Part shown: piece after piece, positions 23,344 to 52,836 of the stretch | Position numbering within the stretch: the stretch's first letter is position 1 | How the letters are laid out: each line of letters begins with the position of its first letter | From: Clostridiales bacterium | GTDB lineage: Bacteria > Bacillota > Clostridia > Monoglobales > JAIRYP01 | Direction: 5' to 3' | Assembly (NCBI GenBank): GCA_031267755.1 | Contig: JAIRYP010000011.1 | Location: forward strand, 128,761 to 192,760 | DNA length: 64,000 nucleotides | Position numbers and translations under genes: made by a program | The notes under the pieces: generated by a model | Seen by the model: the letters and a program-made list of their open reading frames with translations, nothing else | The model's database searches: none | Told to the model about the DNA's origin: nothing

Positions 23344-23375
23344 AGTATTAAATTTTTTAAAGTTGGTGTTAAATT

Positions 23376-33242: not shown

Positions 33243-35444
33243 CTATTTTTGATTAGAATGATCGAAAGTCTTTTCTTTCTTTTCAACCTGTTTTTCAAAA
33301 TCTTCAGACGATTGAAAAGTTGAATGTTCTGTAACTTTTTCTCGATCTTGCACCGCAGTGGAACTTTCACTTCTTGAATGGAAAGGTGGTAAATGTTTTA
33401 GGGGATAAAAATCCTCATTTCCTTTTAATTTTATTGGTTTCTCAAAAACAGCATCTGGATATCTACAGTGATTATAGTATGGAGCAAGAAAAAATATATG
33501 CAATAAACCGCTTCTAAAAAATAAATAAATAGCTTGAAAAAAAATATATATTTTGCTTCTTTTAAGCCCATCGCGTTCAAGTATTTTAATCATAGCCTTA
33601 ACTTTTATTTTCTTTTTTTCCTTTGAATCTAACACTTCATGTAAGGACCGCTTGCCCTCTTCACTTAATTTAATTTTTTCAGCTTTGAGTAACGCTAACA
33701 AAAAAAGCAACTGTTCCTCATAAGCGTTTAAACGTCGAGTCGTCATATATTTTTTTTCCGCAAAATCATTCAAACGTTTATTAAAAGAATCTTTTTCTTC
33801 TTCTACTTTGCCTTCTACTTCTTTACCTTCTTCGTTTTCTTCTTCTACTTCTTTTTCTTCTTCTACTTCTTCTACTTCTTTACCTTCTTCGTTTTCTTCT
33901 TCTACTTCTTTTTCTTCTTCTACTTCTTCTACTTCTTTACCTTCTTCGTTTTCTTCTTCTACTTCTTTTTCTTCTTCTACTTCTTTTTCCTCTTTTTCTT
34001 CTTTTTCTTTTTGAAGAATCCTCTCATAAAATTTCTCAACATTTTGATCGAAATTTGAATAATCCAATAGATGTATATTATAACCATATTCATCCATATA
34101 AAAAGATACTTTTTCTTTAAAATCTGATAATTGTTTCAATAATCCAGGTTCTCGATCTCCACTTTTTTTAAACTTTTCAACTATTTTATAAACTTTTGGG
34201 CTTCCAAAAAACGCAAAATTTAAAATAATTCTTTCTCTAAAATTTAATTTTTTTTCTATAGTTAAATCAACAGAAAATCCAAAAGGAAGCCACATATTTC
34301 CATTTTGCCACAAACCTACAATACAAGCCTCTTTAAGCGCTTGTTTAAAATAAATATGTTTAAATTCTCTTTTAGAACAAATATTAAACTTCCTAATTAA
34401 CATCTGAACAAATTCCGAAGGCTTTTTATTTTTTTCACAAAAATCAGTTAAAGTGAGTGCTGGAACTAAAACAAGAGCACCTAAATCTTGAGAAGAACAA
34501 GAATCACTTTCAAGAGGTTCAATACAATCAAGTAAACGTAAAACTCGATTATCAAAGACCTCATTAAACTCTATTGTTTCAGTACAATTTGGAATTGCAA
34601 AATAACCTAAAAAAAAGAAAAAGAAAATTTTACTTGCATCATTAAAAGAACTAACTCGACCTAAAACATTTTGTGAAAAACCTAATTTCTCTAAATCATA
34701 AAAATTTTCATTACCAACTCCGCCACAAATAATTGATTGATGCAAAATATATAAAATATCATTTTTCAATTCTGGAGTTAAACTAGACATTGGCGTAATT
34801 TGTTTTTTTAAATCTTCAAAACTTTTTGACAAATTAATAGGAAAACTCATACAAGTCTGCAAAGATTGTTTATGATTTGAAATGCGACAATGCCGAATTC
34901 TAAAAATTTTAGTTATTGCAGCATAATTATATTTGTCAATATAATCAAAACTACTAAAATACTCAATAAAACGTTCAAAATATTTTAAACCTAAACCTTC
35001 GCGCTCATCAAAACAACGAGATTCAAAAATAATATTTTCCACATTGCTCAATAATTCTTCTTTTTGACTTGGATTCAAAGAATTATAATTCAGTCCACTA
35101 GTTAAAATAATTAAGGTACAAACAAATTTAATAAACCTATCTGGTTCTGTTGTAAATAAAATAACAGATTTACAAAATCTTTCTTCTTTAAATAATTCTA
35201 AAATAATGATTTTTAAAACTTCACTATTCTCGACAAATGGATATCCATAATTTTGTGAAATAAAACTAGAAATTTCTTCTAAAATATTCCAAAATTTTTC
35301 TATGTTAGAATCAGAAATATAATATTCTTTTGGTGGTTTATTAAAATCAACACCCACAAATGAATCATTTACTATTTCTCTTACTTCATTAATCTCATCT
35401 TGAAATTTACTACCTGATTCGCTAATAAGTTCAATTAAATTCAT
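33243..35444 (-). CDS. hypothetical protein with acidic tandem repeat; divergent fourth member of family C
   Basis: 733-aa ORF. Its C-terminal block EEQLLFLLALLKAEKIKLSEEGKRSLHEVL parallels LTFSLVALAFLLAYPSDKIILNREYKSLDAF (member 3) and IEIIGLSIFIAYLPDEKISRRDSKNIHDLL (member 1). An acidic linker sits at the same relative position. Confidence 0.65.
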   Translation of the reverse strand: MNLIELISESGSKFQDEINEVREIVNDSFVGVDFNKPPKEYYISDSNIEKFWNILEEISSFISQNYGYPFVENSEVLKIIILELFKEERFCKSVILFTTEPDRFIKFVCTLIILTSGLNYNSLNPSQKEELLSNVENIIFESRCFDEREGLGLKYFERFIEYFSSFDYIDKYNYAAITKIFRIRHCRISNHKQSLQTCMSFPINLSKSFEDLKKQITPMSSLTPELKNDILYILHQSIICGGVGNENFYDLEKLGFSQNVLGRVSSFNDASKIFFFFFLGYFAIPNCTETIEFNEVFDNRVLRLLDCIEPLESDSCSSQDLGALVLVPALTLTDFCEKNKKPSEFVQMLIRKFNICSKREFKHIYFKQALKEACIVGLWQNGNMWLPFGFSVDLTIEKKLNFRERIILNFAFFGSPKVYKIVEKFKKSGDREPGLLKQLSDFKEKVSFYMDEYGYNIHLLDYSNFDQNVEKFYERILQKEKEEKEEKEVEEEKEVEEENEEGKEVEEVEEEKEVEEENEEGKEVEEVEEEKEVEEENEEGKEVEGKVEEEKDSFNKRLNDFAEKKYMTTRRLNAYEEQLLFLLALLKAEKIKLSEEGKRSLHEVLDSKEKKKIKVKAMIKILERDGLKRSKIYIFFQAIYLFFRSGLLHIFFLAPYYNHCRYPDAVFEKPIKLKGNEDFYPLKHLPPFHSRSESSTAVQDREKVTEHSTFQSSEDFEKQVEKKEKTFDHSNQK
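33811..33981 (-). repeat. 3 x 57-bp in-frame tandem repeat encoding (EEEKEVEEENEEGKEVEEV)3
   Basis: By direct comparison, units 33868-33924 and 33925-33981 are identical. Unit 33811-33867 differs only at its first base. The period of 57 bp equals 19 codons. Confidence 0.9.
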
Positions 35445-35683
35445 TCTCTAAGATTCCTTTGCTTAAAACAAATATGAATATTAAAACAATTATTATTATG
35501 TAGAAAAAATAAAATAATTAAAAGTATTTATTGAATTATTTTTGCTCAAAAAATCTAAATTAATGAATAAATAATTGAATTTTTTACCACACTATTACTG
35601 TAAATTAAGTCTTAGAAACTTAAATTTATATTTGTTTAAAAATTCAAATGTTAGTTTAAAACGAACGTAAGGGGATGATTAAT

Positions 35684-36229
35684 ATGAAAGCCACGGGAAT
35701 AGTGCGAAAAATTGACAATTTAGGTAGAGTTGTAATACCCAAAGAAATTAGATCAACAATGAAAATACGCGAAGGTGATCCACTCGAAATATATACAGAT
35801 AGAAATAATGAGGTAATATTTAAAAAATATTCATTGATCGGTGAGCTTGGAATCTTTGCCGAGCAATATACCGAAAGTTTAGCAAAAGTTTCGCAATTTC
35901 CAGTTTGCATAAGCGACAGAGATGTTTTAATTGCTTGCAATGGAATTTCAAACAAAAATCTGATAATAGGCAAAAGAATTTCCAAAGAAATTGAAGATTA
36001 TATAGAAACAAAAACTTTATCTATAATAAAAAAAGAAGAAAAAGTTCCGCTTTTACTTGAAGACAATCAAAAATATAAAATTGCGGCAATTGCTTCAATA
36101 ATTTTCGAAAATGAACCAATTGGATCAGTACTACTTCTTGAAAACTCAAAAAACAAAAAAGATGTTGAAGAATCAGATATGAAACTTATTGAGGTTGCTT
36201 CAATTTTTCTATCAAAGGTCGCAAATTAA
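35684..36229 (+). CDS. spoVT: stage V sporulation protein T (AbrB-type DNA-binding domain plus GAF-like domain)
   Basis: MKATGIVRKIDNLGRVVIPKEIRSTMKIREGDPLEIY is the SpoVT/AbrB swapped-hairpin domain. The length of about 181 aa fits SpoVT rather than AbrB. The ATG at 35684 is better spaced from AAGGGG than the track's ATG at 35675. Confidence 0.85.
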   Translation: MKATGIVRKIDNLGRVVIPKEIRSTMKIREGDPLEIYTDRNNEVIFKKYSLIGELGIFAEQYTESLAKVSQFPVCISDRDVLIACNGISNKNLIIGKRISKEIEDYIETKTLSIIKKEEKVPLLLEDNQKYKIAAIASIIFENEPIGSVLLLENSKNKKDVEESDMKLIEVASIFLSKVAN

Positions 36230-36307: not shown

Positions 36308-36324
36308 GTCGCCTGAGAGGCGAC
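36308..36324. terminator. bidirectional rho-independent terminator between convergent spoVT and 36358-37617
   Basis: Perfect 7-bp stem GTCGCCT/AGGCGAC with a 3-nt loop (GAG). It is flanked by an A-rich run upstream and a T-rich run downstream (ACATTTATTTAATTTTT). Confidence 0.6.
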
Positions 36325-36357: not shown

Positions 36358-37617
36358 TTATTTCCCCGGAACAGTTGCTTTTTTAGGAGCAGGGGCTTTA
36401 GCTTTAGGAGGCATTGCATTAGGCGGCGTAATCGGGGTAGATTGACGATATAATTCTACTTCGTTTTCTTGTTTTTGAGTTATTGCATCCTTAGCATGAA
36501 TAACTAAATCACTAATTTTTTCTTCGTCAATGTGTGGCAAGTTTGCATCCACATGCTTTTTTGCAAGAAATTCAAGTGCGCTGTGATCGCCATTTTTTGC
36601 TTTTTCCATATTAATTTGTATTTCTTTCAATTTTGCTTCTAATTCTTTTAATCTTTTCGAACAAGTATCTGCGCAAATGTCAAGCTCGTCTTTAATTATT
36701 TTGGTAAGATTACGAAAATCTTCTATTGATTTTTCATACATTTTTTTAACGAGTTCTTTCCTAAAATCTTTCGAAGAATCAGGAAAAGCGTTTTTAACTA
36801 ACCGTCCTAAATTCTTCTCCAATTCGTGAGACGTTTCAATCAATTGATTATAAAACTTTTCTCCTAGCTTACCTAAAGATTTAAAATATCTCAAAACCTT
36901 TATAATTTCTGTTGAAACAACACTTAACTCTTTACCTCCTCTTTTTAATTTTTCAACATATTCTATTGCCTTATCAATAGCTTCATCAAATGACACCGTT
37001 TTTTCTGACGACATTTTATCTGATGCTAATTCAACTGGCAATGATTCGTTCGCTGAGAATGAGTCAAGCGTTAGTTTCTCTGGCGAAGAAATTTTGGAGG
37101 ATGAATCGAGCATTGGTTTTTCTGATGAAAAATCATTCGATAAATCGGGCGAAATTGTAAACGATGAAGTTTCTAAAACTGGTAAAGTTCCTGAGCCTTC
37201 AGGGTCTTTATAATCTTCTGGCTCTGAAATTGTTAAATTGGGATTCGACGCCTCAGTGGTTTCTGTTTGACTAGTTTTAACTACTCCTAATGCATCATTC
37301 TCTGGTAATTTTTCTAAATTTTCTTCTTTAATTTTTGTAGCATCAATTTCTTTTACTTTTTCTCTCTCTTGATTTATTTTCTTTTTTATTTTTTCAAATT
37401 TACTGTAATTTTCGAAAAATAAAAAATCTTTTTCAAAAGAATGCAAAATCAATAAAATAATCAAAATAGGTGTAAAAAACAAACAAATAATAAATTGAAA
37501 TATCATTTTGTAAAAAATTTTATTTTGCTGTTTGATTAATTCTTTTATGTTTTCGGTATCATCAGAATGTTTTTCAATCTTTTTAAAATCAATCATGTTT
37601 TTCACCACCTGAAACAA
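36358..37617 (-). CDS. hypothetical single-pass membrane coiled-coil protein, KKATV[PH]GK-tail family (type A, copy 1)
   Basis: 419 aa. The N-terminus KKIEKHSDDTENIKELIKQQNKIFYKMIFQFIICLFFTPILIILLIL is near-collinear with 40233-41417. A Ser/Glu/Pro-rich linker is followed by a helical C-domain ending PPNAMPPKAKAPAPKKATVPGK. Confidence 0.75.
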   Translation of the reverse strand: MFQVVKNMIDFKKIEKHSDDTENIKELIKQQNKIFYKMIFQFIICLFFTPILIILLILHSFEKDFLFFENYSKFEKIKKKINQEREKVKEIDATKIKEENLEKLPENDALGVVKTSQTETTEASNPNLTISEPEDYKDPEGSGTLPVLETSSFTISPDLSNDFSSEKPMLDSSSKISSPEKLTLDSFSANESLPVELASDKMSSEKTVSFDEAIDKAIEYVEKLKRGGKELSVVSTEIIKVLRYFKSLGKLGEKFYNQLIETSHELEKNLGRLVKNAFPDSSKDFRKELVKKMYEKSIEDFRNLTKIIKDELDICADTCSKRLKELEAKLKEIQINMEKAKNGDHSALEFLAKKHVDANLPHIDEEKISDLVIHAKDAITQKQENEVELYRQSTPITPPNAMPPKAKAPAPKKATVPGK

Positions 37618-37711
37618 TTTTAAAAAATATAACGATTATTTTAAACAATTTTTTTAAAATAATCAATGATATTTTTTTAATAAATTAAGTTTATTTGTGA
37701 AGTTAAAATTT

Positions 37712-38911
37712 TTATTTTCCGTGTACAGTTGCTTTTTTGGGCGCAGGGACTTCAGCTTTAGGAGGCATTGCATTAGGCGGCAACATTGCAGCCGCTTGCT
37801 TAGGTGGGATTGGGTGATATATTGCTTCTTGAGTATCTATTTTCTTTTTTAAATCGGCTTCTACTTGACTGACAAATTTATTAGCGCTATCTACAAAATG
37901 CTGTTTTAGCGAAGTTAAGGTCGCGTCTGAAATTTCTGGGCAAGGAATCGGCTTCGCTTGAGCAATAAAAGAAGTTGCTTCTTCATCGCCTCCAACAGCT
38001 TCAACGAGTTTTTTGCCTATAAGTTCATCCTGAGCCTGCTTTTCTTCTAAATATTTTGTTAATGGCACTTGTGCTTTTTTATATGTATCTGTCATCGAAT
38101 CAAAAATTGAAGTAAGACCTCCAACTAAATTACTATTATTTTCTACAATCAATCCAGTCTTAACTGTCTCAGGCAAAGGAGCCTCTGTTATCAATTTTGA
38201 AGTTTTAACGCCGCCTTCTTGTAATACATGTTTTACATCATCTAAAGTTCCTCCATACCAAACATCTAATTTTCCCGAACTTGATACTCCCTTACTTCCT
38301 TCGTTAGAACTTCCCTTTTGAAAAATTCCAAAAAAATGTTTTGCATTGTTTGCATTTGTCTGTATGCGCTGTTGCTCATCAACTTCACGCTTTCGTTCAA
38401 CAGCCTTACATTTCTCTTTAATACCTTCTAACAACCCTTTATATCTCTGCCACCCTTTTCTAAATCTTTCTAATTCTGCAATTTCTCCATCCAATCTTGA
38501 TCTTTCATCTTCAGCATTACTTTTCTGTACAGCACGCGAAATACCTCCACCGATAGCACCAGCCAACAAACCAATGCCTGCACCAACTGCTGTTCCTACT
38601 AAAGGAATTGGAAAACTTGTACCAATTGCAGCACCAACACCTGCTCCTGTGGCTGCCCCAGCACCTGCACCAGCAACACCTCCTGCTACAGGTCTTGTTA
38701 CATTTCCCTTGATTATCCCGTCTTGGTCTTCTACCAAAACCCTAAAATCTCTTATACACTCTTCGATTTTCGTAATTAAAGCACTAGCACTCTCTAAATG
38801 TCTTTCCAACTCATCTTCTGTAAAACCTCGCGCAGTGTATTCACCAACAATTTCACCTGATCCCACTTCTCTTTTCATACGCTCCATTTCGTCTCGCGCA
38901 GTTGCTGCCAT
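37712..38911 (-). CDS. hypothetical glycine-zipper membrane protein, KKATV[PH]GK-tail family (type B, intact copy)
   Basis: 399 aa with the Gly/Ala zipper segment AGGVAGAGAGAATGAGVGAAIGTSFPIPLVGTAVGAGIGLLAGAIGGGI, followed by coiled coil. The C-terminus is PPNAMPPKAEVPAPKKATVHGK. Its DNA is much GC-richer than its neighbours: my counts are 60/130 for 38781-38910 and 62/120 for 38581-38700, against 25/120 for 39181-39300. Confidence 0.8.
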   Translation of the reverse strand: MAATARDEMERMKREVGSGEIVGEYTARGFTEDELERHLESASALITKIEECIRDFRVLVEDQDGIIKGNVTRPVAGGVAGAGAGAATGAGVGAAIGTSFPIPLVGTAVGAGIGLLAGAIGGGISRAVQKSNAEDERSRLDGEIAELERFRKGWQRYKGLLEGIKEKCKAVERKREVDEQQRIQTNANNAKHFFGIFQKGSSNEGSKGVSSSGKLDVWYGGTLDDVKHVLQEGGVKTSKLITEAPLPETVKTGLIVENNSNLVGGLTSIFDSMTDTYKKAQVPLTKYLEEKQAQDELIGKKLVEAVGGDEEATSFIAQAKPIPCPEISDATLTSLKQHFVDSANKFVSQVEADLKKKIDTQEAIYHPIPPKQAAAMLPPNAMPPKAEVPAPKKATVHGK

Positions 38912-39124
38912 TTTTAACTCCTTCTGAGATTATGATTGATTTTAAATTGTTCTAACAAAGATGCTTATACTGCAAAATAAAAAATTTTAAATAAAATTTT
39001 TGAAAATATATTAATAAACTTTTAAAACTATAATTAAAATACTTTGTAAAAAATTTATAATTGTTTTTCATTAATTAATTGTGTTATCATTATGTAATTC
39101 ATATTTTTAATAAAGGACGAAATA

Positions 39125-40165
39125 ATGAACACTGCATCAGAAGAATATAAAGAGATTTTTAATGCTTTTTTTGAAGAAGTAAATTTACTTGAAAAAGATA
39201 AATTCAGAAAAGAAATCATGGATATGATGCTTGATTGGACAGAATTTTTTAAAAAGAAAAATGAATTAGATGAGAATGATTATATTTCAGAAAAAAAAAT
39301 GAACAAAATCATAAAAAAAGTATATAGATCAAAAGTAATTCAAGAATATAATAAAGAAACAGGTTCTAATTTAGAAGAACTTGTTGTTGTTTGTCCATCA
39401 ACTCATCATTTTAATTTTCTTCACTTCCATCAAATTAAAGATATTTTTAATTATTTACAAAGGCACAAGATTAAATTTATATTAAAAAACATACGTTTAT
39501 TAATTCAACTTAAAAATATTGAAGAAAATAAATATCAAAATGATGAAATTGTCAAAAAAATTTTAGACAAAACTAGAAAATCAATACATGATTTTCGATG
39601 CATAGAAATAGAATACAAAGATGAATTTAAAAAAAAAGATTCTCCAGTGCTTTTTATTGTTAGACATGCTTGCATAATAAATTTAGCATGCAAATTACTG
39701 AAATCGATGGAAAGAAAAATAAAATTTTCAACACATGATTTGAATAAACTTAAATTTTTTATGAAAATAGAAAATGAAAGTGGATTTGGCTTTTATAACC
39801 AATATATTTTTGAAGAATTAAAAAACACATATAATAAAAAAGGTAAAAAAGCACTCCATAATCAATTAAAAAATTTAGAAGATAATTTTTCATCATTAAA
39901 CACAAAAATTTTTCCAAATTTAATCGGTTATTTCTACACTATTTTTGTAGAAATTAAAGATCATTTCTTTCCTAAAAAACCTGAAATAATCTTAGAAGAG
40001 TTAAAAAAAGAAAAAATGGCAGGATATAGAAGTTTTGAAAATTATATAGAATTAATAAAAGAAGTAAAAGAACTAAACGGCAAAATTGATCCTACATCTT
40101 TTAGTGATCCTGCACTCAATAATATAAACACTAGTAAAGTTGAAGAATATATGTTTATAAAATAA
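39125..40165 (+). CDS. hypothetical protein (Lys-rich, soluble)
   Basis: 346-aa ORF on the opposite strand between the two copies of the duplicated module, with an AAGGA RBS upstream. It has no TM segment, no signal peptide and no recognisable motif. Confidence 0.6.
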   Translation: MNTASEEYKEIFNAFFEEVNLLEKDKFRKEIMDMMLDWTEFFKKKNELDENDYISEKKMNKIIKKVYRSKVIQEYNKETGSNLEELVVVCPSTHHFNFLHFHQIKDIFNYLQRHKIKFILKNIRLLIQLKNIEENKYQNDEIVKKILDKTRKSIHDFRCIEIEYKDEFKKKDSPVLFIVRHACIINLACKLLKSMERKIKFSTHDLNKLKFFMKIENESGFGFYNQYIFEELKNTYNKKGKKALHNQLKNLEDNFSSLNTKIFPNLIGYFYTIFVEIKDHFFPKKPEIILEELKKEKMAGYRSFENYIELIKEVKELNGKIDPTSFSDPALNNINTSKVEEYMFIK

Positions 40166-40232
40166 CTATAACTAATCTTTGACCTTTTTTTAGCTTTAAA
40201 TCCTCTCAGTAAATGGAGCAATTATATTAAAA

Positions 40233-41417
40233 TTATTTTCCGTGTACAGTTGCTTTTTTAACTGGAGTTTCAGAAGACATTGATTCAAAAAAAGGCATAG
40301 CTGGTTTTGCAGTTGAAAACCTTTTACGGTATTCCTCCACCCGGGCTTTTTGATTTTGAATTATTGAGTCTATCAAATTGTTAATTAAGCTATATAATTT
40401 TTCCTCATCGATTTCCGAAAATAAAAAAGGCGCTTCCACATGTTCTTCGGCAAGAAATGCTAACGCTTTTTCATCGCCCTCTTTTGCTTTTTGCATATTG
40501 ACTAAAATTATTTTTGATTCATTTTCTAATCTCGCCATTCTCTCTGCACACATACCCTCAAGAGCTCCAATATCATGACCAATTGTTATATAAAAATTAC
40601 GCACTTGTATTTCCGTTTCAATAAAAATTTCTTCAAAAATCTCTTTTATGGAATCTTTTGAAATATTAGGAAAAGTCACATTAAGTAATACTTTTAAATT
40701 TGCTTTTAAATGATGCAGTTTACCAAAAGTTTGGTAAATAAAATTATAGTACAGTTTAGATATAGATTTAGAAAGCTTACGATTTTTTTCAATTTCCTCT
40801 AAAATACCATCGCTTTTTTTGATTTTTGCTTCTGTTTTTTCTTTTCTAATACTCTCTGCAACTTTGTCGAATACTCCATCTAATAACGCTAATTTTTCCT
40901 GTTCGAACTGTTCCGACAAAACGAACGAAATATCTGGGGTTCTTAAATCTTTTGATTCTTGTGAATTTAAAACTGGTGATTCAAGGTTTGATGATTCAGA
41001 ATTATCAACACTTTCAGGCTGCTCTGTATTTAAAGATGGTGATTCAAGGTTTGATGATTCAGAACTTTTTATTTTTTTAATTTCTGTTGAATTTAATGGT
41101 TCACTATCTTTCAATTTTTCTATTCTTTGTCTTTCAAATTTCTCAAAATCTATTTCCTTTATTTTTTTTCTCTCTAAATTTATTTGTTCCTTTATTTCTT
41201 CTAATTCTTTGCACGTTTTAAAAAACAAATAATCTTTTTCAAAAAAATGCAATAATAAAAAAATTATGAAAACAGGAATAAAAAATAAACAAATTATAAA
41301 TTGAAATATCATTTTATAAAACGGTTTGTTTTGTTGCCTAATTAAATCTTTTATAAATTCTGTATCATTCGATTGTTCTTCGATTCTTTTAAAATTAACC
41401 ATAACTTCTATCGCCAA
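40233..41417 (-). CDS. hypothetical single-pass membrane coiled-coil protein, KKATV[PH]GK-tail family (type A, copy 2)
   Basis: 394 aa. The N-terminus FKRIEEQSNDTEFIKDLIRQQNKPFYKMIFQFIICLFFIPVFIIFLLL is paralogous to 36358-37617. The C-domain block MQKAKEGDEKALAFLAEEHVEA ... ends VKKATVHGK. Confidence 0.75.
   Translation of the reverse strand: MAIEVMVNFKRIEEQSNDTEFIKDLIRQQNKPFYKMIFQFIICLFFIPVFIIFLLLHFFEKDYLFFKTCKELEEIKEQINLERKKIKEIDFEKFERQRIEKLKDSEPLNSTEIKKIKSSESSNLESPSLNTEQPESVDNSESSNLESPVLNSQESKDLRTPDISFVLSEQFEQEKLALLDGVFDKVAESIRKEKTEAKIKKSDGILEEIEKNRKLSKSISKLYYNFIYQTFGKLHHLKANLKVLLNVTFPNISKDSIKEIFEEIFIETEIQVRNFYITIGHDIGALEGMCAERMARLENESKIILVNMQKAKEGDEKALAFLAEEHVEAPFLFSEIDEEKLYSLINNLIDSIIQNQKARVEEYRKRFSTAKPAMPFFESMSSETPVKKATVHGK
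40975..41064 (-). repeat. 63-bp-period coding repeat (SESSNLESP[SV]LN x2) in the linker of 40233-41417
   Basis: The exact 27-nt string GGTGATTCAAGGTTTGATGATTCAGAA occurs at 40975-41001 and 41038-41064, with similar flanks. Confidence 0.8.
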
Positions 41418-41491
41418 CTTTTAAAATATTTTTTTAAAATAAACAATAATGTTTTTTCGACAAATTAAGTTTATTTATAAAATTAAAACCA

Positions 41492-42659
41492 CTATTTTCC
41501 AGGTACAGTTGCTTTTTTAGAAACTGGGGTTTTAAGAGGTGTTACAGTAAGTGGTGATGTGTCTGCTTGCGTAAACGGAGTTGGTTGATATTGCAACCTG
41601 AAAGCTTCCACGGCAGCCTTTTGTCTCTGAATTATAATATCCTTAACGTGACTAATCAAATCGTTAATTTTTGCCTCATCAATTTGCGGTAAATTTGCTT
41701 TCAAATGTTTTTTTAGCAAAAATGCAGAAGCAGATTCATCACCTTCACTAGCTTTAACCATATTAAGTTGTATTTCTTTTAATTCAATTTCCAGCTCTTT
41801 CATTCTTTCCAAACGAGTACCAATACAAATTTCAAATTCCTCTTTAATTTTTATGTAACAATCGCGAATATCTTCTTTTGACTTTTTAAATACATTTTTA
41901 ACAAGTTTTTTTCTAAAAACCTTTGGAAAATCTGGAAAAGTATTTTTAACTAATTCTTTCAAACTGCTTTTCAATTCATCTTTCATATCATCAATCTGAT
42001 CAGAAAGTTTATCTCTAAATGTTTGCAATTTATCTATGTGTTCTCTATTTTCGTTATGTTCTTCAATGGCCTCTTGTTTCTTCGCCCCGCCATTTTTCAA
42101 ATCAGTTTCTAATTGTTTAACTTTTAATTCTAAAACCACACAGTCTTCTAATTCTTTTTGCTTCGCTGGTGATTTGTCAGGTACTTTACGATGATCCATT
42201 TCTGTTTTTATCTTTGTAATAAAAACCTTCCAGAATTGATTTCTCGAACATATAATGCGGAATTATCTCAGCTTCAAGTCTTGTTTTTTCTTCCGTTAAA
42301 CTTTTGTTTTCAAGTTCACTCGCCGCTTTTCCAAACACATAACCAAAAATAGTGCCTATAATAGGAATAATAGAACCAACTATCGCATAAGCAAGTGGCG
42401 ACGAATTTGAATCTTCCAACATTTTTGTTATCTAGTTATTTCTTTGTTCACAATGAACTAACCCTCTTTCACGAAATTCGATACGATTTTCAGAATCAAC
42501 CCAATATTCCTTCAACTGTTGATTGTTTAAATCAACGATTTCTTCTGGCACAATAAACGATTCTCCCGCACGTTCTTTTCTATTTTCCTTTAGAACATGA
42601 AATTCTTCGCTTAATTTAAAAATTTCACTAGAAGTTTTTGTCGCAGACATCGATACCAT
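41492..42659 (-). pseudogene. disrupted type-B KKATV[PH]GK-tail gene (three collinear ORFs: 42432-42659, 42186-42422, 41492-42199)
   Basis: The ORFs together span 1168 nt, against 1200 nt for intact 37712-38911, with the same order of parts. The N-domain RKERAGESFIVPEE parallels MKREVGSGEIVGEY. The TM segment is AYAIVGSIIPIIGTIFGYVFG. Coiled coil and the tail KKATVPGK follow. ORF1 and ORF2 are in the same frame, separated by a TAG at 42432-42434. ORF2 and ORF3 differ by one frame at the A5 run at 42221-42225. Removing one base there gives LEGFITKIKTEMDHRKV, matching LEGIKEKCKAVERKREV in the intact copy. Confidence 0.55.
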
Positions 42660-42888: not shown

Positions 42889-43983
42889 TTACACGTTAAA
42901 CAGAAAATGAATAATATCTCCATCATGAACAACATATTCCTTTCCTTCACTTCTGATAAGTCCTTTTGACTTTGCATTTGAAAGACTTCCGCATTCTAAA
43001 AAATCATCAAATCCAATTACTTCGGCACGAATAAAACCACGTTCAAAATCTGAGTGTATTTTTCCAGCTGCTGCCGGTGCTTTTGTATTATTCGTAATTG
43101 TCCATGCTCTTACCTCTGGTTTTCCAGCAGTGAAATAACTTATTAATTCAAGTAAATCATAACTTTTTTTAATAAAACTATTAAGTCCGGTATCGCTTGC
43201 TCCTATATCCTCTAAAAATATTTTCTTTTCTTCATCAGACAAACTAGAAAGTTCCTCCTCGATTTTAGCGGAAATTACAATCATCTCAGACTCATTTTTT
43301 TCACTATATTCTTGAACTTTTTTTAAAAAATCATTTTTACCTGGATTTGTATAATCACCTTCAGTAGAATTTGCTGCATAAATCACTGGTTTTAAAGTGA
43401 TTAAATTAACATTTGACACAATCTCAATTTCTTTTTGGGAAAGATTCAAATTTCTAGCCATTTTACCGCTTTCGAGAAATACCTTTATCTTATTTAAGGT
43501 ATCAAGTTCAAATTTCCTATTTTCTTCGTTAATTTTAAAATTTTTATCAAGTTTTGAAATTCGTTTTTCAACAATATCAATATCTGAAAAAATAAGTTCC
43601 AAATTAACAATTTCAATGTCACGAATTGGATCAACAGAATTTTCGACATGAAAAATATTTTCATCTCTAAAACACCTTACAACGTGAACTATAGCATCAA
43701 CTTCGCGAATATTTGATAAAAATTTATTACCAAGTCCTTCGCCAACGCTTGCTCCTTTCACAAGACCCGCTATATCAACAAAATTTGCAACCGCTGGCGT
43801 AATTTTTTCTGGGTTATATATTTTTGATAATTCTTCAAGACGGATATCTGGCACATTTACAACACCAATATTGGGCTCTATTGTGCAAAAAGGATAATTG
43901 GCAGACTGCACAGACGACTTAGTTATCGCATTAAAAAGAGTACTCTTTCCAACGTTTGGAAGTCCAATAATGCCAAGTTCCAT
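42889..43983 (-). CDS. ychF: ribosome-binding ATPase YchF
   Basis: 364 aa with the G1 motif GIIGLPNVGKSTLFNA and a C-terminal TGS domain (KGLIRSEGKEYVVHDGDIIHFLFNV). Confidence 0.95.
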   Translation of the reverse strand: MELGIIGLPNVGKSTLFNAITKSSVQSANYPFCTIEPNIGVVNVPDIRLEELSKIYNPEKITPAVANFVDIAGLVKGASVGEGLGNKFLSNIREVDAIVHVVRCFRDENIFHVENSVDPIRDIEIVNLELIFSDIDIVEKRISKLDKNFKINEENRKFELDTLNKIKVFLESGKMARNLNLSQKEIEIVSNVNLITLKPVIYAANSTEGDYTNPGKNDFLKKVQEYSEKNESEMIVISAKIEEELSSLSDEEKKIFLEDIGASDTGLNSFIKKSYDLLELISYFTAGKPEVRAWTITNNTKAPAAAGKIHSDFERGFIRAEVIGFDDFLECGSLSNAKSKGLIRSEGKEYVVHDGDIIHFLFNV

Positions 43984-44126: not shown

Positions 44127-44780
44127 TCATTTTTGTAAATCTCTTTTAATATTATTAATATCATCATTTATTTCTTTATATTGCCTTAAATTCTTCTCAG
44201 CGTGATCTTCAAGTTCTCGTATCTGAGTACGTTCAAAAACTTCTTCATCAAAAATGAATCTAGCTCTACGATTTCTCCTATCTTCTTCTTCACTCAAAAT
44301 ACGTTGTTGTTCTACACGTCGAGCTTCTTGTAAAAATGAAAAAAGTTCAATACTACGTACTTTAAACTCTGCTTCTGTCACTAATTCCTTTACTCTATTC
44401 ACTAAAAATTTTTTACCATACAAAATATTACTTAAAATTAGTTTGTCACTCGCTGCAATTTCTTCTTTAAGAGAATCGGAAAAAGGTTTTTTACTTTCAT
44501 ACCTTATTTTCTCTTCTTCTAATTGTCTTTCAAGTTCTTCTATTATAGGTCTTGAAGCAAAATCTACCAACATACTAAAACTTTGTAATATTCCGTAACA
44601 ATTTCGTGCTTCAACAATATCAATATCATTTTCAAAATTCGCAAACGCAACAACATTTCCATCAGGCCCAATTCCTTGTCTATCTCCAGAAAACAACCTC
44701 AAATGAGCTGCTTCCGCATTTTCAACTGTTTGTTCATCCATATCTAAAATTCTATAACATTGAAAAAATATACCATTCAT
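44127..44780 (-). CDS. hypothetical protein, family A ([FY]F.CYRILDMD N-terminus), copy 1
   Basis: 217 aa. MNGIFFQCYRILDMDEQTVENAEAAHLRLFSG aligns with MVFFDCYRILDMDSEKVRAASEAYERLCQRV from 44858-45511. The two also share EEEDRRNRRARFIFDEE versus EEEDRINRRSRLSYDEE. It has no TM segment or signal peptide and a coiled-coil C-half. Confidence 0.7.
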   Translation of the reverse strand: MNGIFFQCYRILDMDEQTVENAEAAHLRLFSGDRQGIGPDGNVVAFANFENDIDIVEARNCYGILQSFSMLVDFASRPIIEELERQLEEEKIRYESKKPFSDSLKEEIAASDKLILSNILYGKKFLVNRVKELVTEAEFKVRSIELFSFLQEARRVEQQRILSEEEDRRNRRARFIFDEEVFERTQIRELEDHAEKNLRQYKEINDDINNIKRDLQK

Positions 44781-44857
44781 CGTTTAACCAATCCCTTCTT
44801 ATTACAAAAAATATTTTATAAATTTAAAATAATTATAATATTTATTTTTACTCAATT

Positions 44858-45511
44858 TTACTTATTTTTAAAATTATTAATATCTTGACTTAATTTTTTT
44901 TGAAGACGTAAAATTCTTTCTGAAGGAGTTTCAAACATTTTTATTTCTTTTTCTACAAGAAACTCTTCGTCATAACTAAGTCTACTTCTACGATTTATTC
45001 TATCTTCTTCTTCTCTCAAAATACTCTCTTGTTCTAAACGTTGAGCTTCTCTAGTATCATGAATAAGTTGAATAAAAGTTAATCTATTTTCCGCCTCTCG
45101 TAATTTTTCTTCTACGTCTCTAACAATAGATTTAACATTACACAAAAGATTAAGTGAAAGATAGTAATCACTTTCTGCACGCCTTTTTAAAATGGGATCT
45201 GAAAAAGTTTTACCTTCAAAACTTTGTTTTGCTAATTCCAATTCTTGTTCACGTTGTAATATTAAAGGAGCTGAGGCCATTACTACATCTGCATAAAAAT
45301 TCCGCAATGATCCAAAAATACCCCTAGCAGTATTAAGATCAATTTGATTAAAAGCTTCAGGAAAAAACTCTGGAAAAACTTCAAACTGTGTAGGATTTTC
45401 AACAGTTCCAATCGCATGAACGCGTTGACACAATCTCTCATAAGCTTCACTTGCTGCTCTGACTTTTTCTGAATCCATATCTAAAATTCTATAACAATCG
45501 AAAAAAACCAT
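44858..45511 (-). CDS. hypothetical protein, family A, copy 2
   Basis: 217 aa, collinear with 44127-44780 over its full length, with a GAGGAG RBS upstream. Confidence 0.7.
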   Translation of the reverse strand: MVFFDCYRILDMDSEKVRAASEAYERLCQRVHAIGTVENPTQFEVFPEFFPEAFNQIDLNTARGIFGSLRNFYADVVMASAPLILQREQELELAKQSFEGKTFSDPILKRRAESDYYLSLNLLCNVKSIVRDVEEKLREAENRLTFIQLIHDTREAQRLEQESILREEEDRINRRSRLSYDEEFLVEKEIKMFETPSERILRLQKKLSQDINNFKNK

Positions 45512-45558
45512 ATTTAATCTCTCCTCTTTTTTTAATATAAAAAATATTCTACAAACTT

Positions 45559-45588
45559 ATTATAACACAATAACTTGAAAAAAATCAA
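45559..45588 (-). promoter_or_regulatory. sigma-A-type promoter candidate with extended -10 upstream of 44858-45511
   Basis: Read on the minus strand: TTGATT (45583-45588), an 18-nt spacer, then TGTTATAAT with TATAAT at 45559-45564. That is about 45 nt upstream of the start codon. The same leader sequence recurs upstream of the gene remnant at about 46585-46655. Confidence 0.35.
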
Positions 45589-45667
45589 ACATTTTAAATT
45601 TTTACGCCAAACAATGAAATCTCCACACATCATATATTTCTCATAATTATTATTGTTTACTCAATCT

Positions 45668-46249
45668 TCATTTGCCTAACTGTAATTTAAGATTTTCAAT
45701 ATCTTTATTTAAACTTGTTAATAAATGTGAAGCTCTTTCGTTGAGTCCTTCAAATTCTTTTATATTGCCTACAAAAAAATGCTCATCATAAACATCAACA
45801 ATAATTCTTTCATTTTCCGTATTTTCCCGAACTGTTACAAAAAAATTTACATCTTGATGAAATTCATCATTAATTTGACTAACCATCAATTCAAATTGCG
45901 CTAATTGCAAAACTTGCTTAATGATATCAATACACAAATCAATATTAAGTAAATTAAGTTCTATAGATATTCTATCTTCAGAATCTATATCTGTTCCCTC
46001 TAAATCAGTCTGAAGCTGTTCAGACATAGCTATTGATGTTGAAAATACTAAATTTCCGAAATCTTCTAATGTTTGGCAACAACGTTCCGCAGTAGCCACA
46101 TCAACTCCAACTATAGCATGATCTACAAAAAAACTTCCATCATTGTCTATTGAAACTCTACCACTACATAATGTTCGAAAAGCTTCATCAGCTCTTTCAA
46201 TCGTCTCCAAATCTAAATTCAACTTATCATGAAAATAAATAAAATTCAC
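45668..46249 (-). CDS. hypothetical protein, family A, divergent copy 3
   Basis: 193 aa. MNFIYFHDKLNLDLETIERADEAFRTLCSG aligns with the N-termini of the other two copies. The C-terminal NKDIENLKLQLGK parallels DINNIKRDLQK. It lacks the RRNRR block. Confidence 0.65.
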   Translation of the reverse strand: MNFIYFHDKLNLDLETIERADEAFRTLCSGRVSIDNDGSFFVDHAIVGVDVATAERCCQTLEDFGNLVFSTSIAMSEQLQTDLEGTDIDSEDRISIELNLLNIDLCIDIIKQVLQLAQFELMVSQINDEFHQDVNFFVTVRENTENERIIVDVYDEHFFVGNIKEFEGLNERASHLLTSLNKDIENLKLQLGK

Positions 46250-46388: not shown

Positions 46389-46523
46389 TTAACTTAAAAT
46401 CCTTTCAATATTATTAATATCATCACTTAATTTTCTATGTAACGCTAAATTTCTCATAAAAAGATCTTAGAGTTTTCGTATATGAACCTCTTCAATAAAT
46501 CCTTCGTCATATTGAAAATCATT
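46389..46523 (-). pseudogene. 5'-deleted remnant of a fourth family A gene
   Basis: The minus-strand translation DFQYDEGFIEEVHIRKL*DLFMRNLALHRKLSDDINNIERILS* aligns with FIFDEEVFERTQIRELEDHAEKNLRQYKEINDDINNIKRDLQK* of 44127-44780. An in-frame TAA (plus-strand TTA at 46467-46469) replaces a Glu codon. The 3' flank (46346-46388) also matches the flank of 44127-44780. Confidence 0.7.
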
Positions 46524-46863: not shown

Positions 46864-47601
46864 TTAAAATTTCCTTTTGCCTAAAAATTTTTTACAAAAT
46901 AAACTATTGGCAGAAATCTCAAGATCATCATTCAATTTTGACAAACTCAAAAACTCCTCATATTTTTGTTTTAACGCTTTATTTAACAAATGATCACACA
47001 CTAAAGGATTTTTAGGAAGAAGTGGCCCATGAAGATAAGTTCCAATAATATTTTCGTGCATCACGCCCTCAAATTCAAAATTGTTATAACATCCACCAAT
47101 TAATATTTTACCAAACGGTTTATAACAATTATTAAATGTTCTACCTGCATGATTCTCAAAACCGACTATTTTATTATCAAATAATTCATTTTCCAAAATT
47201 ATATTTCCAATTATACGCTTATCGCTTGATTCGGTATAAATATCCAATATTCCAAGCCCTTCAAGCATCTCATCTTTAATTTTATAATATTTCCCAAGAA
47301 GTTGATACCCACCGCAGACAGCAAGCAATACTTTTTGATCCTCAACATATTTTCTTATTTTATTTTTTATGCATAATAATTTTTCACAAACTATTTTTTG
47401 TTCTCTATCCGAGCCTCCGCCAATAAAAATAATATCAACATAATTTAAATCAATATTTTCAGACTCTGTCGTCAGCTCAATAACGTTTGCATCAATATTC
47501 CTCCACAAAAGCCTTCTTTTCATGCATTCAATATTCCCTCTATCGCTGTAAAGATTCAACAAATCAGGATACATATGGAGAATATTTACTACCACAACCA
47601 T
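46864..47601 (-). CDS. gatD: lipid II isoglutaminyl synthase, glutaminase subunit GatD (CobQ-type amidotransferase)
   Basis: 245 aa with the nucleophile motif LLAVCGGYQLLG and the His region GTYLHGPLLPKNP. It lies immediately downstream of murT. Confidence 0.85.
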   Translation of the reverse strand: MVVVVNILHMYPDLLNLYSDRGNIECMKRRLLWRNIDANVIELTTESENIDLNYVDIIFIGGGSDREQKIVCEKLLCIKNKIRKYVEDQKVLLAVCGGYQLLGKYYKIKDEMLEGLGILDIYTESSDKRIIGNIILENELFDNKIVGFENHAGRTFNNCYKPFGKILIGGCYNNFEFEGVMHENIIGTYLHGPLLPKNPLVCDHLLNKALKQKYEEFLSLSKLNDDLEISANSLFCKKFLGKRKF

Positions 47602-47667
47602 TCCTCAATTTCTTTATAAAATACTCAAAAGATAAAAATTAAAATTCTTAAACAATTATTTAATCTA

Positions 47668-52184: not shown

Positions 52185-52836
52185 CCATCGAAATCTGAGT
52201 TAAAATAGTTACAATGATTAAATAAAAAATCGCAACAACCGTCCAAGTAGAAAACGATTCCATCGTCCTACCAATATAAATTTTTGCCTCATAAATAATT
52301 TCTCCAAGACTTATCACTGAAACAATTGATGTATCTTTTAAACTTATTATAAACTGATTTACAAGTGAAGGAATTGAAATTCTTATTGCTTGAGGAAGAA
52401 CAACTCGTATCAAAGAGCGCCACTTTGAAAACCCAAGACTACGAGCCGCCTCCGTTTGACCAACATCGACCGCCAAAACTCCTCCACGAAAAATTTCCGA
52501 AATGTATGCGCCCGCATTAAGCCCAAGTGTAATAATTGAAGCAGTAAAAACTGATATCCTAAAGTTTATTCCAAAATGTTGAATAAGCTGTGGAATAGCA
52601 AAATAAATATAAAATACCTGAACTATAAGTGGAGTTCCACGTATTATCCAAACATAAACATCAGACAAAAAAGAAAAAATTTTAATACACGATAAATGTG
52701 CTAAGCATGATAATAAACCCAAAAATATTGCAATAATAAGAGCTATAAAAGTTGTTTGCATCGTAATACCAAAACCCTTCAATAAAAAAGGAAAAGCTTC
52801 ATTCAAAACTTTAATTATATTCATAAACTTCTCCAA
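52141..52836 (-). CDS. polar amino acid ABC transporter permease
   Basis: 231 aa, multi-TM, with the EAA loop [24 protein letters not shown]. The start may be the internal Met at 52824. Confidence 0.88.

Follow-up and report, generated by a model that had tools for sequence, protein, structure and literature searches.

A duplicated two-gene module with a shared C-terminal octapeptide: a lineage-specific family of possible envelope proteins in an uncultured clostridial bacterium

Four minus-strand genes of the window (the whole 64-kb stretch of DNA that was analysed) form two pairs, in each of which a type B gene is followed by a type A gene, i.e., B1-A1 and a broken B2 followed by A2 (Table 1). 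The ORFs are found where the sequence-only reading had placed this duplicated module. The B-to-A junction is duplicated as well, with respective strings at 37682-37708 and 41462-41488, 2 nt off the earlier estimate. NCBI places the start of A1 at M8 (412 aa, protein MDR1391950) and that of A2 at M6 (389 aa, protein MDR1391953). The genes of the family are real: ORFs of ~400 codons have a probability of ~1e-15 to stay open by chance in DNA of 28% GC, codon usage and GC3 match those of housekeeping genes, and Shine-Dalgarno sequences are located upstream of B1 and B2n. B2 is decaying, i.e., it carries one in-frame TAG (42432-42434) and one frameshift (B2m/B2c) between ~42189 and 42262. A neighbouring orphan family likewise has a degraded copy.

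Table 1. Features of the locus and their positions within the window.
Feature	Position	Strand	Remarks
A1 gene (type A)	36358..37617	-	ORF start TTG 37617; likely start ATG 37596
B1 gene (type B, 399 aa, MDR1391951)	37712..38911	-	Shine-Dalgarno AAGGAG upstream
A2 gene (type A)	40233..41417	-	likely start ATG 41402
B2c, C-terminal fragment of broken B2 (235 aa; C-domain and tail)	41492..42199	-	annotated as own CDS, P0126
B2m, middle fragment with TM helix LAYAIVGSIIPIIGTIFGYVFG	42186..42422	-	homologous to B1 TM/juxtamembrane region
B2n, N-terminal fragment	42432..42659	-	ends at in-frame TAG; GGAGG Shine-Dalgarno upstream
A1 5' block (N-peptide, TM helix, juxtamembrane helix)	37288..37587	-	75% nt identical to A2 41094-41393
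A1 transmembrane helix MIFQFIICLFFTPILIILLILHSF	37435..37506	-	
A2 transmembrane helix MIFQFIICLFFIPVFIIFLLLHFF	41241..41312	-	
B1 Gly/Ala-rich hydrophobic segment, aa 74-125	38537..38692	-	TM core aa 99-122
A1 helical C-domain, four main helices at aa 210-393	36439..36990	-	approximate bounds
A1 tail KKATVPGK	36361..36384	-	AAA AAA GCA ACT GTT CCG GGG AAA, then TAA
B1 tail KKATVHGK	37715..37738	-	27/27 nt identical to A2 tail including stop codon
A2 tail KKATVHGK	40236..40259	-	
B2 tail KKATVPGK	41495..41518	-	stop codon TAG
B1 3' tract (…PPNAMPPKAEVPAPKKATVHGK*)	37712..37781	-	89% nt identical to A1 36358-36427 over 70 nt
B1-to-A1 intergenic junction	37618..37711	-	promoter-like TTGATT-17-TAAAAT (37666-37638); conserved with B2-to-A2 junction
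B2-to-A2 intergenic junction	41418..41491	-	TTGTTT-17-TAAAAG at 41446-41418
Bidirectional intrinsic terminator (GTCGCCTCTCAGGCGAC, then T-run) between A1 and spoVT	36308..36324	.	z = -3.0
Isolated inverted copy of tail DNA (AAAAAAGCAACTGTTCC)	33701..33717	+	17-nt exact match to A1; possibly not part of feature

A helical C-domain of about 170-200 aa is common to all four products; the sequence-only reading had estimated about 130 aa. The claimed homology itself is supported by BLASTP comparisons of the C-domains of A1 and B2c (47% identity, E 1e-47) as well as by those of A1 with A2 (37%, E 2e-72) and B1 (30%, E 6e-11). With its C-domain, B2 resembles type A more than it does B1, which makes the family a mosaic. 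AF2 models of A1 and B1 show the same helix pattern (pLDDT of 79 for the A1 C-domain and of 72-89 for B1 residues 208-365). Regarding the type B genes, the idea of two copies of one pair holds for the TM/juxtamembrane segment (score 56 vs. 25.8 +/- 4.5 for shuffles, 0/500 as high) and the C-domain; only there is homology of B1 and B2 demonstrable, while their N-domains show no detectable similarity.

Each product ends in KKATV[P/H]GK followed by the stop codon, and a six-frame scan finds exactly four such ends within the window, which confirms the proposed invariant tail. Invariant columns make up 7/8 of the tail vs. 17/216 (8%) of the remaining C-domain alignment (binomial P = 1.4e-7). On the DNA level, 23-27/27 nt of the tail are identical in every pair of the four genes, while the 45 nt upstream show 11-16/45 identity, i.e., chance level in five of six pairs. 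The variable positions GT[T/A], C[C/A]N, GG[G/A] and TA[A/G] comprise three silent changes and one P/H change. Since the tail DNA matches while the upstream DNA is at chance level, since variable positions are mostly synonymous, and since silent sites elsewhere are saturated, the tail is kept by selection on the peptide rather than by recent copying. This makes a functional tag or docking motif a reasonable reading of the sequence. The preceding spacer is variable and Pro-rich (AF2 pLDDT below 50); a low-confidence spacer of this kind plus a tail is a pattern typical of a short linear motif.

Two observations qualify this picture. A fifth paralogue (P0127) ends in …ETIHDKTL, i.e., in a degenerate and non-terminal version of the tail with two extra residues after Lys, such that the family can do without a strictly C-terminal KKATVxGK. 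Furthermore, a different gene (minus-strand orphan gene 33243-35444) harbours the inverted copy of the tail DNA, which is a hint that the DNA itself might matter.

Next, we consider age and selection. The dS of A1/A2 is about 1.2 with saturated silent sites, and the duplication of the A/B module is, by this measure, old. For the same pair, dN/dS values of 0.12 (N-peptide and TM helix), 0.49 (C-domain) and 0.59 (linker) are observed, and a dN/dS of 0.30 is found for A1/B2c. These values indicate strong constraint on the type A N-peptide and TM helix and faster evolution of the C-domain (0.3-0.5). The 3' tract of B1 differs from A1 with a dS of 0.34 and represents a younger local gene-conversion tract; part of the tail uniformity could therefore be concerted evolution. 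In spite of saturated silent sites, a 100-nt block that holds the B-to-A junction strings is 83% identical between the two copies. It resembles a conserved promoter region and probably harbours a promoter of A or a site for its regulation. B and A point in the same direction, and a terminator follows A1 only, where it ends the B1-A1 transcription unit.

The architectures that had been described for both types are confirmed. Type A proteins have a hydrophobic core of 24 aa that shows, by inspection, no cleavage motif, preceded by an N-peptide with about 8 Lys/Arg in 30 aa. Type B proteins start with a helical domain of 75-95 aa without signal sequence. B2 has a single TM helix of 22-24 aa, and the first half of the hydrophobic region of B1 stays below the hydropathy threshold for TM segments. 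A simple positive-inside count is ambiguous for type A, given 3 K/R on each flank of the TM helix. Export is unlikely for both the basic N-peptide of type A and the N-domain of type B, which supports N-in. We thus infer an N-in/C-out topology with an extracytoplasmic C-domain. For exposed proteins one would also expect this sequence pattern, i.e., a conserved anchor and a distal domain that evolves fast.

In accordance with the sequence-only reading, no described family matches: neither sequence searches (Pfam, NCBIfam, PHROG, PADLOC, PDB) nor fold searches (PDB, viral structures) provide a significant match. The best fold neighbours have E values of at least 0.06 and TM-scores of 0.2-0.4, i.e., are not significant. 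An exhaustive profile search among 1.84 billion representative proteins yields 5 family members, all from one MAG, namely the genes of the window and P0127. Scans of genome, metagenome and viral collections for the tail pattern show chance matches only. The suspicion of an undescribed system is thus not borne out. The tail is found in these genes only, which comes close to what the sequence-only reading had named as counter-evidence, but no close relative of the source organism has been sequenced (the nearest YchF is about 65% identical), such that the restriction to one MAG says little about conservation in relatives.

Our best explanation, which is tentative but quite possible, is that the genes encode lineage-restricted, anciently duplicated bitopic envelope proteins (N-in/C-out) with the tail as docking motif. 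Here, the cytoplasmic part would be a basic 30-aa peptide in type A and a helical domain (about 75-95 aa) in type B, followed by one signal-anchor TM helix per protein and a stalk. In type A, the stalk comprises a short coiled coil and about 100 aa of disordered linker, which is acidic and Ser/Glu/Pro-rich. Next come a helical bundle of elongated shape (about 170-200 aa), the Pro-rich spacer and the basic octapeptide KKATV[P/H]GK-COOH. Tail and helical head, the latter fast-evolving, would both be extracytoplasmic, located within the wall or beyond it and facing host or spore compartment. All paralogues would use the tail as a short linear motif for docking to the same partner or surface, e.g., a receptor protein that they share or an anionic constituent of wall or host. 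The constrained B-to-A junction would carry the promoter or regulatory site for A.

Alternatively, C-domain and tail could be part of a cytoplasmic scaffold (cf. EzrA, DivIVA, PspA/Vipp1) in division, sporulation or membrane remodelling, with the tail binding a conserved cytoplasmic machine like the FtsZ C-terminal peptide does. We consider this unlikely. It needs type A to be N-out or type B to form a hairpin from the 52-aa hydrophobic segment. The Gly/Ala-rich region of B1 could in principle cross the membrane twice, but its sub-threshold first half and the single helix of B2 speak against it. Equal K/R counts on both TM flanks and a very Lys-rich juxtamembrane C-side are in favour of the scaffold, but export of the type A N-peptide or the type B N-domain is improbable. 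Vipp1/PspA and BAR-type membrane-binding helical proteins are among the best fold neighbours, but with the non-significant scores given above, and no Pfam match to PspA/IM30, EzrA or DivIVA is found even at E <= 1. The scaffold would also fit the adjoining spoVT and the annotation of the TM-less B2c as own CDS, while core cytoplasmic scaffolds do not usually have a 100-aa acidic Ser/Pro-rich linker or dN/dS values of 0.3-0.6. Even less probable is a true sorting, anchoring or cross-linking signal read by a dedicated enzyme, e.g., Lpp-like Lys attachment via an L,D-transpeptidase, cross-links to a spore layer by a transglutaminase, or a C-terminal processing protease. All four proteins have the terminal Gly-Lys and two more Lys in common, the tail sits on a flexible Pro-rich spacer, the organism has sporulation genes, and membrane anchor, helical rod and terminal Lys recall Braun's lipoprotein. 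But none of the enzymes expected to co-occur is encoded in the 64-kb window (sortase, L,D-transpeptidase (YkuD), transglutaminase, Ctp/PDZ protease, dedicated protease or transporter). Without a hydrophobic segment or an LPXTG-like motif, the tail does not fit the definition of any known C-terminal sorting signal, and it is found on four proteins of one family only while sorting signals normally mark diverse cargo. The two extra residues of P0127 count against it as well, and monoderm bacteria are not known to attach proteins via a C-terminal Lys. Overall, the interpretation of the sequence-only reading is supported in part.

Two further explanations are improbable, too. A 24-27-nt block might be kept uniform by repeated gene conversion, or serve as a recombination or regulation site on the DNA or RNA level with the peptide being incidental, which we rate about as low as the sorting signal. 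In its favour, B1 and A2 tails are fully identical including a rare CAC His codon and the stop codon, the 3' ends of A1 and B1 are joined by the conversion tract, and the type B tail abuts the conserved junction. Furthermore, the 16-mer AAAAAAGCAACTGTWC is found a fifth time, inverted, at 33701-33716, where 2e-4 to 6e-4 matches are expected by chance. However, 3/4 variable positions are synonymous and in each pair the first Lys codon is precisely where the block begins, as predicted for amino-acid selection. Nothing is conserved downstream of the A1 and A2 tails (26-30/90), no conserved RNA structure includes the tail, an inversion between the inverted copy and A1 would give no sensible ORFs (from reading the ORF map), and the degenerate P0127 tail (T-I-H-D-K) still aligns as protein. 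Least probable, and in our view very much so, are decaying or functionless orphans, i.e., relic or de novo-like ORFs of a reductive, pseudogene-rich genome with the tail as slowest-decaying remnant. The lesions of B2, the degraded copy in the neighbouring orphan family and the searches without homologues beyond the source MAG would agree with this, as would the 94-248 pseudogenes of related endosymbiont genomes (PMC10579323). But ORFs of ~400 codons are intact in three copies despite saturated silent sites, dN/dS values (0.12-0.5) are well below 1, codon usage is native, and junction, Shine-Dalgarno sequences and terminator are conserved.

We compared the family with known systems. Chlamydial Inc proteins such as IncA are lineage-specific paralogues of host-restricted bacteria without homologues outside their lineage and combine an N-proximal hydrophobic anchor with an elongated helical or coiled-coil domain; IncA (6e6a) is fold neighbour rank 4 (E 0.15, TM 0.22, not significant). 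In Inc proteins the hydrophobic domain is bilobed with two helices, in contrast to the single TM helix of type A; they also lack a common C-terminal octapeptide and reach the host vacuole membrane via type III export from a diderm, while the family resides in a Firmicute with no known route of export to a host membrane. The Borrelia PFam12 protein BBH37 stands for paralogous helical surface proteins of host-restricted bacteria. It is also among the fold neighbours (E about 0.5, not significant) and is similar in its small helical bundles, tandem duplicates, rapid divergence, partial pseudogenisation and lack of homologues elsewhere, but PFam12 proteins are diderm lipoproteins without common terminal motif. 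Lpp of E. coli, whose C-terminal Lys is the covalent attachment point to peptidoglycan, is alike in architecture only (membrane-anchored helical rod, invariant C-terminal Lys). The family lacks lipobox, acylated Cys and Pfam or NCBIfam matches; its proteins are 7 times longer, from a monoderm and without L,D-transpeptidase nearby. LPXTG/sortase, PEP-CTERM, GlyGly-CTERM and T9SS CTD signals also place a short conserved element at the extreme C-terminus of divergent proteins. They differ in combining a signature motif, hydrophobic helix and basic cluster, or in being a folded domain, and have many unrelated cargo proteins and a co-occurring dedicated enzyme; the tail comprises 8 polar or basic residues on one family with no enzyme nearby. 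The FtsZ C-terminal peptide and the acidic tip of SSB share the layout of 6-10 conserved terminal aa after a folded domain and a variable disordered spacer, but belong to universally conserved cytoplasmic proteins with known partners, while we infer docking for the tail.

Finally, the window hints at the lifestyle of the source organism. It encodes a TLC ATP/ADP translocase (E 6e-151) as well as spoVT and spoIID, at a GC content of 28%. Clostridial endosymbionts of termite-gut protists have 27.5-33% GC and an ATP/ADP translocase, form endospores and are surrounded by a host membrane (PMC10579323). By analogy, the source organism resembles these intracellular, spore-forming Clostridia. Since the family is found in no other sequenced organism, it is, as far as sequences tell, not a general new system but a real lineage-specific curiosity of an uncultured clostridial spore former with a probably host-dependent and possibly intracellular lifestyle.

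The four genes of the locus lie on the minus strand and form two pairs, in each of which a type B gene (B1, B2) is followed by a type A gene (A1, A2). This arrangement had been claimed by the sequence-only reading and holds, positions included; a six-frame scan of the window finds exactly four open reading frames (ORFs) that end in KKATV[PH]GK followed by a stop codon. We refer to this terminal peptide, KKATV[P/H]GK, as the tail. The pairs are separated by an unrelated plus-strand orphan gene (39125-40165), and between secA and murT/gatD the conserved genes spoVT and ychF are intermixed with orphan genes. In the public record, the A/B genes are listed as MDR1391950-53 (locus tags LBJ09_02010-02025) on a 257,603-bp contig labelled 'MAG: Clostridiales bacterium'.

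Positions of the A/B genes and of conserved genes around them
Feature	Position	Strand	Product or remark
secA	30419-33055		followed on the upper-coordinate side by spoVT, ychF and orphan genes
spoVT	35675-36229	plus	
A1	36358-37617	minus	412 aa; NCBI start M8
B1	37712-38911	minus	399 aa
A2	40233-41417	minus	389 aa; NCBI start M6
B2	41492-42659	minus	broken
ychF	42889-43983		
murT/gatD	46864-49122		

B2 is broken twice, namely by an in-frame TAG (42432-42434) and by a frameshift between ~42189 and 42262. The resulting pieces are an N-terminal fragment of 75 aa (B2n), a middle fragment of 78 aa with the TM helix (B2m) and a C-terminal fragment of 235 aa (B2c) that comprises C-domain and tail and is annotated as its own CDS (P0126). 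The A/B ORFs are real genes, since a 400-codon open frame is expected by chance with P ~1e-15 at the window's composition, codon usage and GC3 agree with the housekeeping genes, and strong Shine-Dalgarno sequences are found at B1 and B2n.

Next, we compared the products using BLASTP. A1 and A2 align over their full length (37% identity, E 2e-72), while B2c matches A1 with 47% identity over 202 aa (E 1e-47) and A2 with 40% identity (E 2e-25). The similarity of A1 and B1 is lower (30% identity, 145 aa, E 6e-11). The C-domain of B2 is nearer to type A than to B1. The shared helical C-domain described by the sequence-only reading thus exists, but the alignments extend it to ~170-200 aa instead of 130 aa. 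An AlphaFold2 model of the A1 C-domain (pLDDT 79) shows helices at 15-32, 34-82, 88-146, 150-157 and 170-198, with the last 25 residues, i.e., a Pro-rich spacer and the tail, being disordered. As a whole, the model of B1 is of poor quality (pLDDT 58), yet its residues 208-365 repeat the helix pattern of A1 with pLDDT 72-89.

Type A proteins start with a Lys-rich N-peptide of ~30 aa and a 24-aa TM helix (MIFQFIICLFF…). A short charged helix and an acidic linker rich in Ser, Glu and Pro then lead to the C-domain, the spacer and the tail. The A2 linker contains an internal 63-nt repeat, where two 40-nt copies at a spacing of 63 nt (93% identical; 40962-41064, minus strand) encode SESSNLESP[S/V]LN, which points to a recent expansion of the disordered stalk. 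B1 starts with a helical N-domain (~75 aa), which is followed by a Gly/Ala-rich hydrophobic segment of 52 aa, a long helix and the C-domain. Type A proteins and B2 each have one TM helix of 22-24 aa. For the TM/juxtamembrane segments of B1 and B2, the local alignment score of 56 is reached by none of 500 shuffles (25.8 +/- 4.5), while alignment of their N-domains reveals no detectable similarity.

We then studied the conservation of the tail. In the four-sequence alignment, 7/8 tail columns are invariant compared to 17/216 other C-domain columns (P = 1.4e-7). On the DNA level, tail plus stop codon are identical at 23-27 of 27 nt in all six pairs, while the 45 nt ahead of it show chance-level identity (11-16/45) in 5/6 pairs. 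The variable tail sites are GT[T/A], C[C/A]N, GG[G/A] and TA[A/G], i.e., three silent changes and one Pro/His replacement. The paralogues themselves are old, with a Nei-Gojobori dS of ~1.2 for A1/A2. Given the tail-only DNA identity, the mostly silent tail changes and this age, the tail has been retained on the peptide level while the paralogues diverged over a long time.

The exception among the six pairs is A1/B1, for which 39/45 of the preceding positions are identical. This is part of a 70-nt 3' tract (A1 36358-36427 vs. B1 37712-37781, minus strand; …PPNAMPPKA.APAPKKATV…), outside of which the neighbouring A1 and B1 C-domains are only 30% identical. Since the tract is 89% identical with a dS of only 0.34, it represents a younger local gene conversion. 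Between A1 and A2, dN/dS (Nei-Gojobori) is lowest in N-peptide plus TM helix (0.12) and higher in the juxtamembrane helix (0.45), the C-domain (0.49) and the linker (0.59); for A1/B2c, we obtain 0.30. By these values, cytoplasmic peptide and membrane anchor are the best conserved parts of type A, and the helical head evolves fast. Programmed frameshifting on the A6 run was rejected: the -1 and +1 frames stop after 12-27 codons, and their similarity is a trivial result of the common DNA. A literature search for the tail peptide yielded no papers.

A duplicated B-to-A junction, also noted from the sequence earlier, is found as a block comprising the B tail and the adjoining intergenic spacer (37639-37738 vs. 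41419-41518). Since it is 83% identical although silent sites are saturated, the block is constrained non-coding DNA. It contains promoter-like boxes (TTGATT-17-TAAAAT in module 1, TTGTTT-17-TAAAAG in module 2) and is likely a promoter or regulatory region of the A genes. We word this role with care because a generic sigma-70 promoter scan shows no enrichment (39 matches vs. 37.7 in shuffled sequence) and is uninformative alone. A convincing terminator is only found after A1 (36308-36324, z = -3.0). RNA structure analysis supports no structure involving the tail, and Rfam identifies only a tRNA in the whole window.

To our searches, the family has no relatives beyond its own MAG. In Pfam, NCBIfam, PHROGs and PADLOC, there are only sub-threshold or compositional matches (RasGAP_C with 22 bits, glycine zippers and, along the Gly-rich segment, tape-measure proteins). 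Profile and single-sequence searches of PDB sequences found nothing, and Foldseek gave no significant match in PDB or BFVD, the fold neighbours being generic long-helix proteins (BAR domains, Vipp1, IncA, ciliary proteins, designed bundles; TM <= 0.41). The earlier statement that no described family matches is sustained, and A/B are members of no known family.

Word-indexed searches of 5.8 billion clusters returned only proteins of the source MAG itself. An exhaustive HMM search of 1.84 billion representatives identified the four window proteins and a fifth paralogue (P0127, E 2e-21; MDR1391736, LBJ09_00905), which is encoded by a partial gene on a contig of 8,610 bp from the same MAG. When aligned to the tail, its C-terminus (…QQAPETIHDKTL) shows T-I-H-D-K with two more residues behind it and is thus a degenerate, non-terminal version. 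A sixth match, a 3585-aa coiled-coil protein, is spurious (hhalign probability 0.8%). The back-translated tail pattern gave 3 metagenome, 2 GTDB-species and 0 viral matches in collections that do not contain the source MAG. These are chance matches since they lie in ORFs of only 9-31 codons in unrelated GC backgrounds. A C-domain pattern scan of GTDB genomes provided no confirmed relative.

We also followed synteny via YchF. The source lineage is unsampled: the window's YchF is a singleton at 90% identity, with true nearest relatives being ~65% identical. The two seemingly closest metagenomic YchF (L006 10001-11518, 505 aa; L007 412-1785, 457 aa) only score that high because their G-domain is duplicated, and they have unrelated neighbourhoods. 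Taken together, the 'undescribed system' put forward by the sequence-only reading is unsupported, because we are left with a five-member ORFan family of one MAG that has no associated enzyme, one decayed copy and one degenerate tail.

The tail had further been proposed to act as a sorting, secretion, anchoring or cross-linking tag. In sortase signals, an LPXTG-like motif precedes a hydrophobic segment, after which a basic cluster forms the C-terminus. In each of the four proteins, the final 30 residues contain neither such a motif nor a hydrophobic stretch. Hydropathy scans reveal no C-terminal TM segment, and an NCBIfam scan (E <= 1) reports no sorting-domain model (PEP-CTERM, GlyGly-CTERM and similar) for any A/B protein. 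Braun lipoprotein Lpp carries a lipobox and an acylated Cys after its signal peptide, while, on inspection, A/B proteins have no signal peptide or lipobox; their sole N-proximal Cys sits within the TM helix (FIIC), and neither Pfam nor NCBIfam matches them to Lpp. One likeness is the terminal Lys of the four proteins: in Lpp, an L,D-transpeptidase joins the C-terminal Lys covalently to peptidoglycan. No sortase, L,D-transpeptidase (YkuD), transglutaminase, dedicated protease or exporter is encoded in the 64-kb window. Thus, we rate an enzyme-recognised sorting or cross-linking tag, including Lpp-like attachment via the terminal Lys, as quite improbable.

Further known systems were compared as well. 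There is no Pfam match to PspA/IM30/Vipp1 (PF04012; ESCRT-III-like) at E <= 1, and the Foldseek match to Vipp1 (8qbs) is not significant (E 0.17, TM 0.31). Chlamydial Inc proteins feature a bilobed hydrophobic domain of 40-60 aa; the Gly/Ala-rich hydrophobic segment of B1 comprises 52 aa, with only its second half passing the TM threshold. Inc proteins reach the host vacuole membrane by type III secretion; no respective genes are found in the window, and Firmicutes are not known to possess such a system. Based on Pfam gathering thresholds, Gly-zipper_YMGG (PF13441) and DUF1269 were rejected for B1 (13.7 bits vs. 28.9 and 15.7 vs. 26.9), with GxxxG spacing being visible. A phage tape-measure or internal virion identity was discarded as well. 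Here, the PHROG matches (best E 1e-6, 27.6 bits) cover only parts of models with 303-1988 positions and fall mainly on the Gly/Ala-rich segment of B1 (top match aa 66-326, others ending by aa 123-272); the neighbours are housekeeping genes without a phage neighbourhood, and the tail is absent from viral contigs. PADLOC's anti-phage defence models gave only matches with E ~0.003-0.01 and <15 bits. By analogy, A/B are of a known kind, i.e., helical envelope proteins with a membrane anchor that form lineage-specific paralogous families in host-restricted bacteria.

The most economical reading, which we favour tentatively, is that A/B are orphan bitopic envelope proteins with N-in/C-out topology and the tail as docking motif. 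Here, a conserved cytoplasmic part and membrane anchor would be followed by a stalk and a fast-evolving helical head, and all paralogues would dock to one partner or surface via a short linear motif, which is basic, terminal and attached through a flexible Pro-rich spacer. We infer the topology because we would not expect the N-terminal parts to be exported, no cleavage motif is present, and a conserved anchor is combined with a variable head; simple counting of K/R residues next to the TM helices gives an ambiguous answer in this respect. A cytoplasmic scaffold seems unlikely. An explanation on the DNA level or by concerted evolution is kept alive by a fifth copy of the tail DNA, an inverted exact 17-nt copy (AAAAAAGCAACTGTTCC) at 33701-33717 (plus strand) within a minus-strand orphan gene. 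For such 16-17-nt copies, only 2e-4 to 6e-4 matches are expected by chance. The copy has no flanking homology and could be a coincidence, a relic or a DNA-level site; a site-specific inversion between it and A1 is unsupported, as no sensible ORFs would result. Set beside the mostly silent variation within the tail, we regard this explanation as rather improbable. That the genes are functionless and decaying, as the broken B2 might suggest, is the least probable alternative when read along with the low dN/dS of the anchor.

The window is AT-rich (25-31% GC) and encodes a TLC-family ATP/ADP translocase (PF03219; 57127-58680, minus strand; E 6e-151), within a MAG of 28% GC. Such translocases are a hallmark of obligate intracellular bacteria and energy parasitism. 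Next to it, at 51426-57029 (minus strand), two tandem polar amino-acid ABC transporter sets are found (ATPases 50% identical, permeases, two solute-binding proteins), which is consistent with a dependence on imported metabolites. The window also holds spoIID (4903-5922, plus strand) besides spoVT, and since both are present, the organism has probably retained sporulation although its genome is reduced and AT-rich. By analogy, the source MAG fits the clostridial endosymbionts of termite-gut protists, which have genomes of 1.0-1.3 Mb with 27.5-33% GC, an ATP/ADP translocase, many pseudogenes, visible endospores and an enclosing host membrane (Takahashi et al. 2023, PMC10579323).

Further orphan genes surround the locus. 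At 44127-46249 (minus strand), three tandem paralogues of 193-217 aa (26-40% identity) lack TM helices and match no Pfam family; a fourth copy (46395-46498) is degraded and contains no ORF of at least 40 aa. The orphan gene that harbours the inverted tail copy (33243-35444, minus strand; 733 aa, no family match) carries a 57-nt tandem repeat (33790-34003, 3.7 copies, 94% matches) encoding EEKEVEEENEEGKEVEEV. At 19493-25499 (plus strand), three consecutive large ORFs (642, 631 and 707 aa) without Pfam match may constitute another lineage-specific family, the first and third being 28% identical over 130 aa (E 9e-10).

As a small and clean example, the locus combines a terminal motif under peptide-level constraint with local gene conversion and pseudogenisation. 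Its value is limited for now since the family is confined to one MAG, the organism is uncultured and the tail has no link to an enzyme or pathway; finding the tail on other proteins of a complete genome or in sister lineages would raise its significance. The tail provides a compact 8-residue peptide handle for finding the partner. If A/B are exposed in the envelope of a host-dependent Firmicute, they would be candidates for the interface of a Gram-positive spore-former with the eukaryotic cell. To our knowledge, almost nothing is known about this interface in the recently described clostridial 'energy parasites'. It would be a long shot that KKATV[P/H]GK-COOH is a new signal for envelope attachment or host docking in an intracellular clostridial symbiont that forms spores. 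In that case, either the terminal Lys would be coupled covalently to peptidoglycan as in Lpp, in a monoderm bacterium, or the tail would tether the bacterial surface to the host-derived vacuole membrane, and A/B would be the first described host-interface family of these Clostridia.
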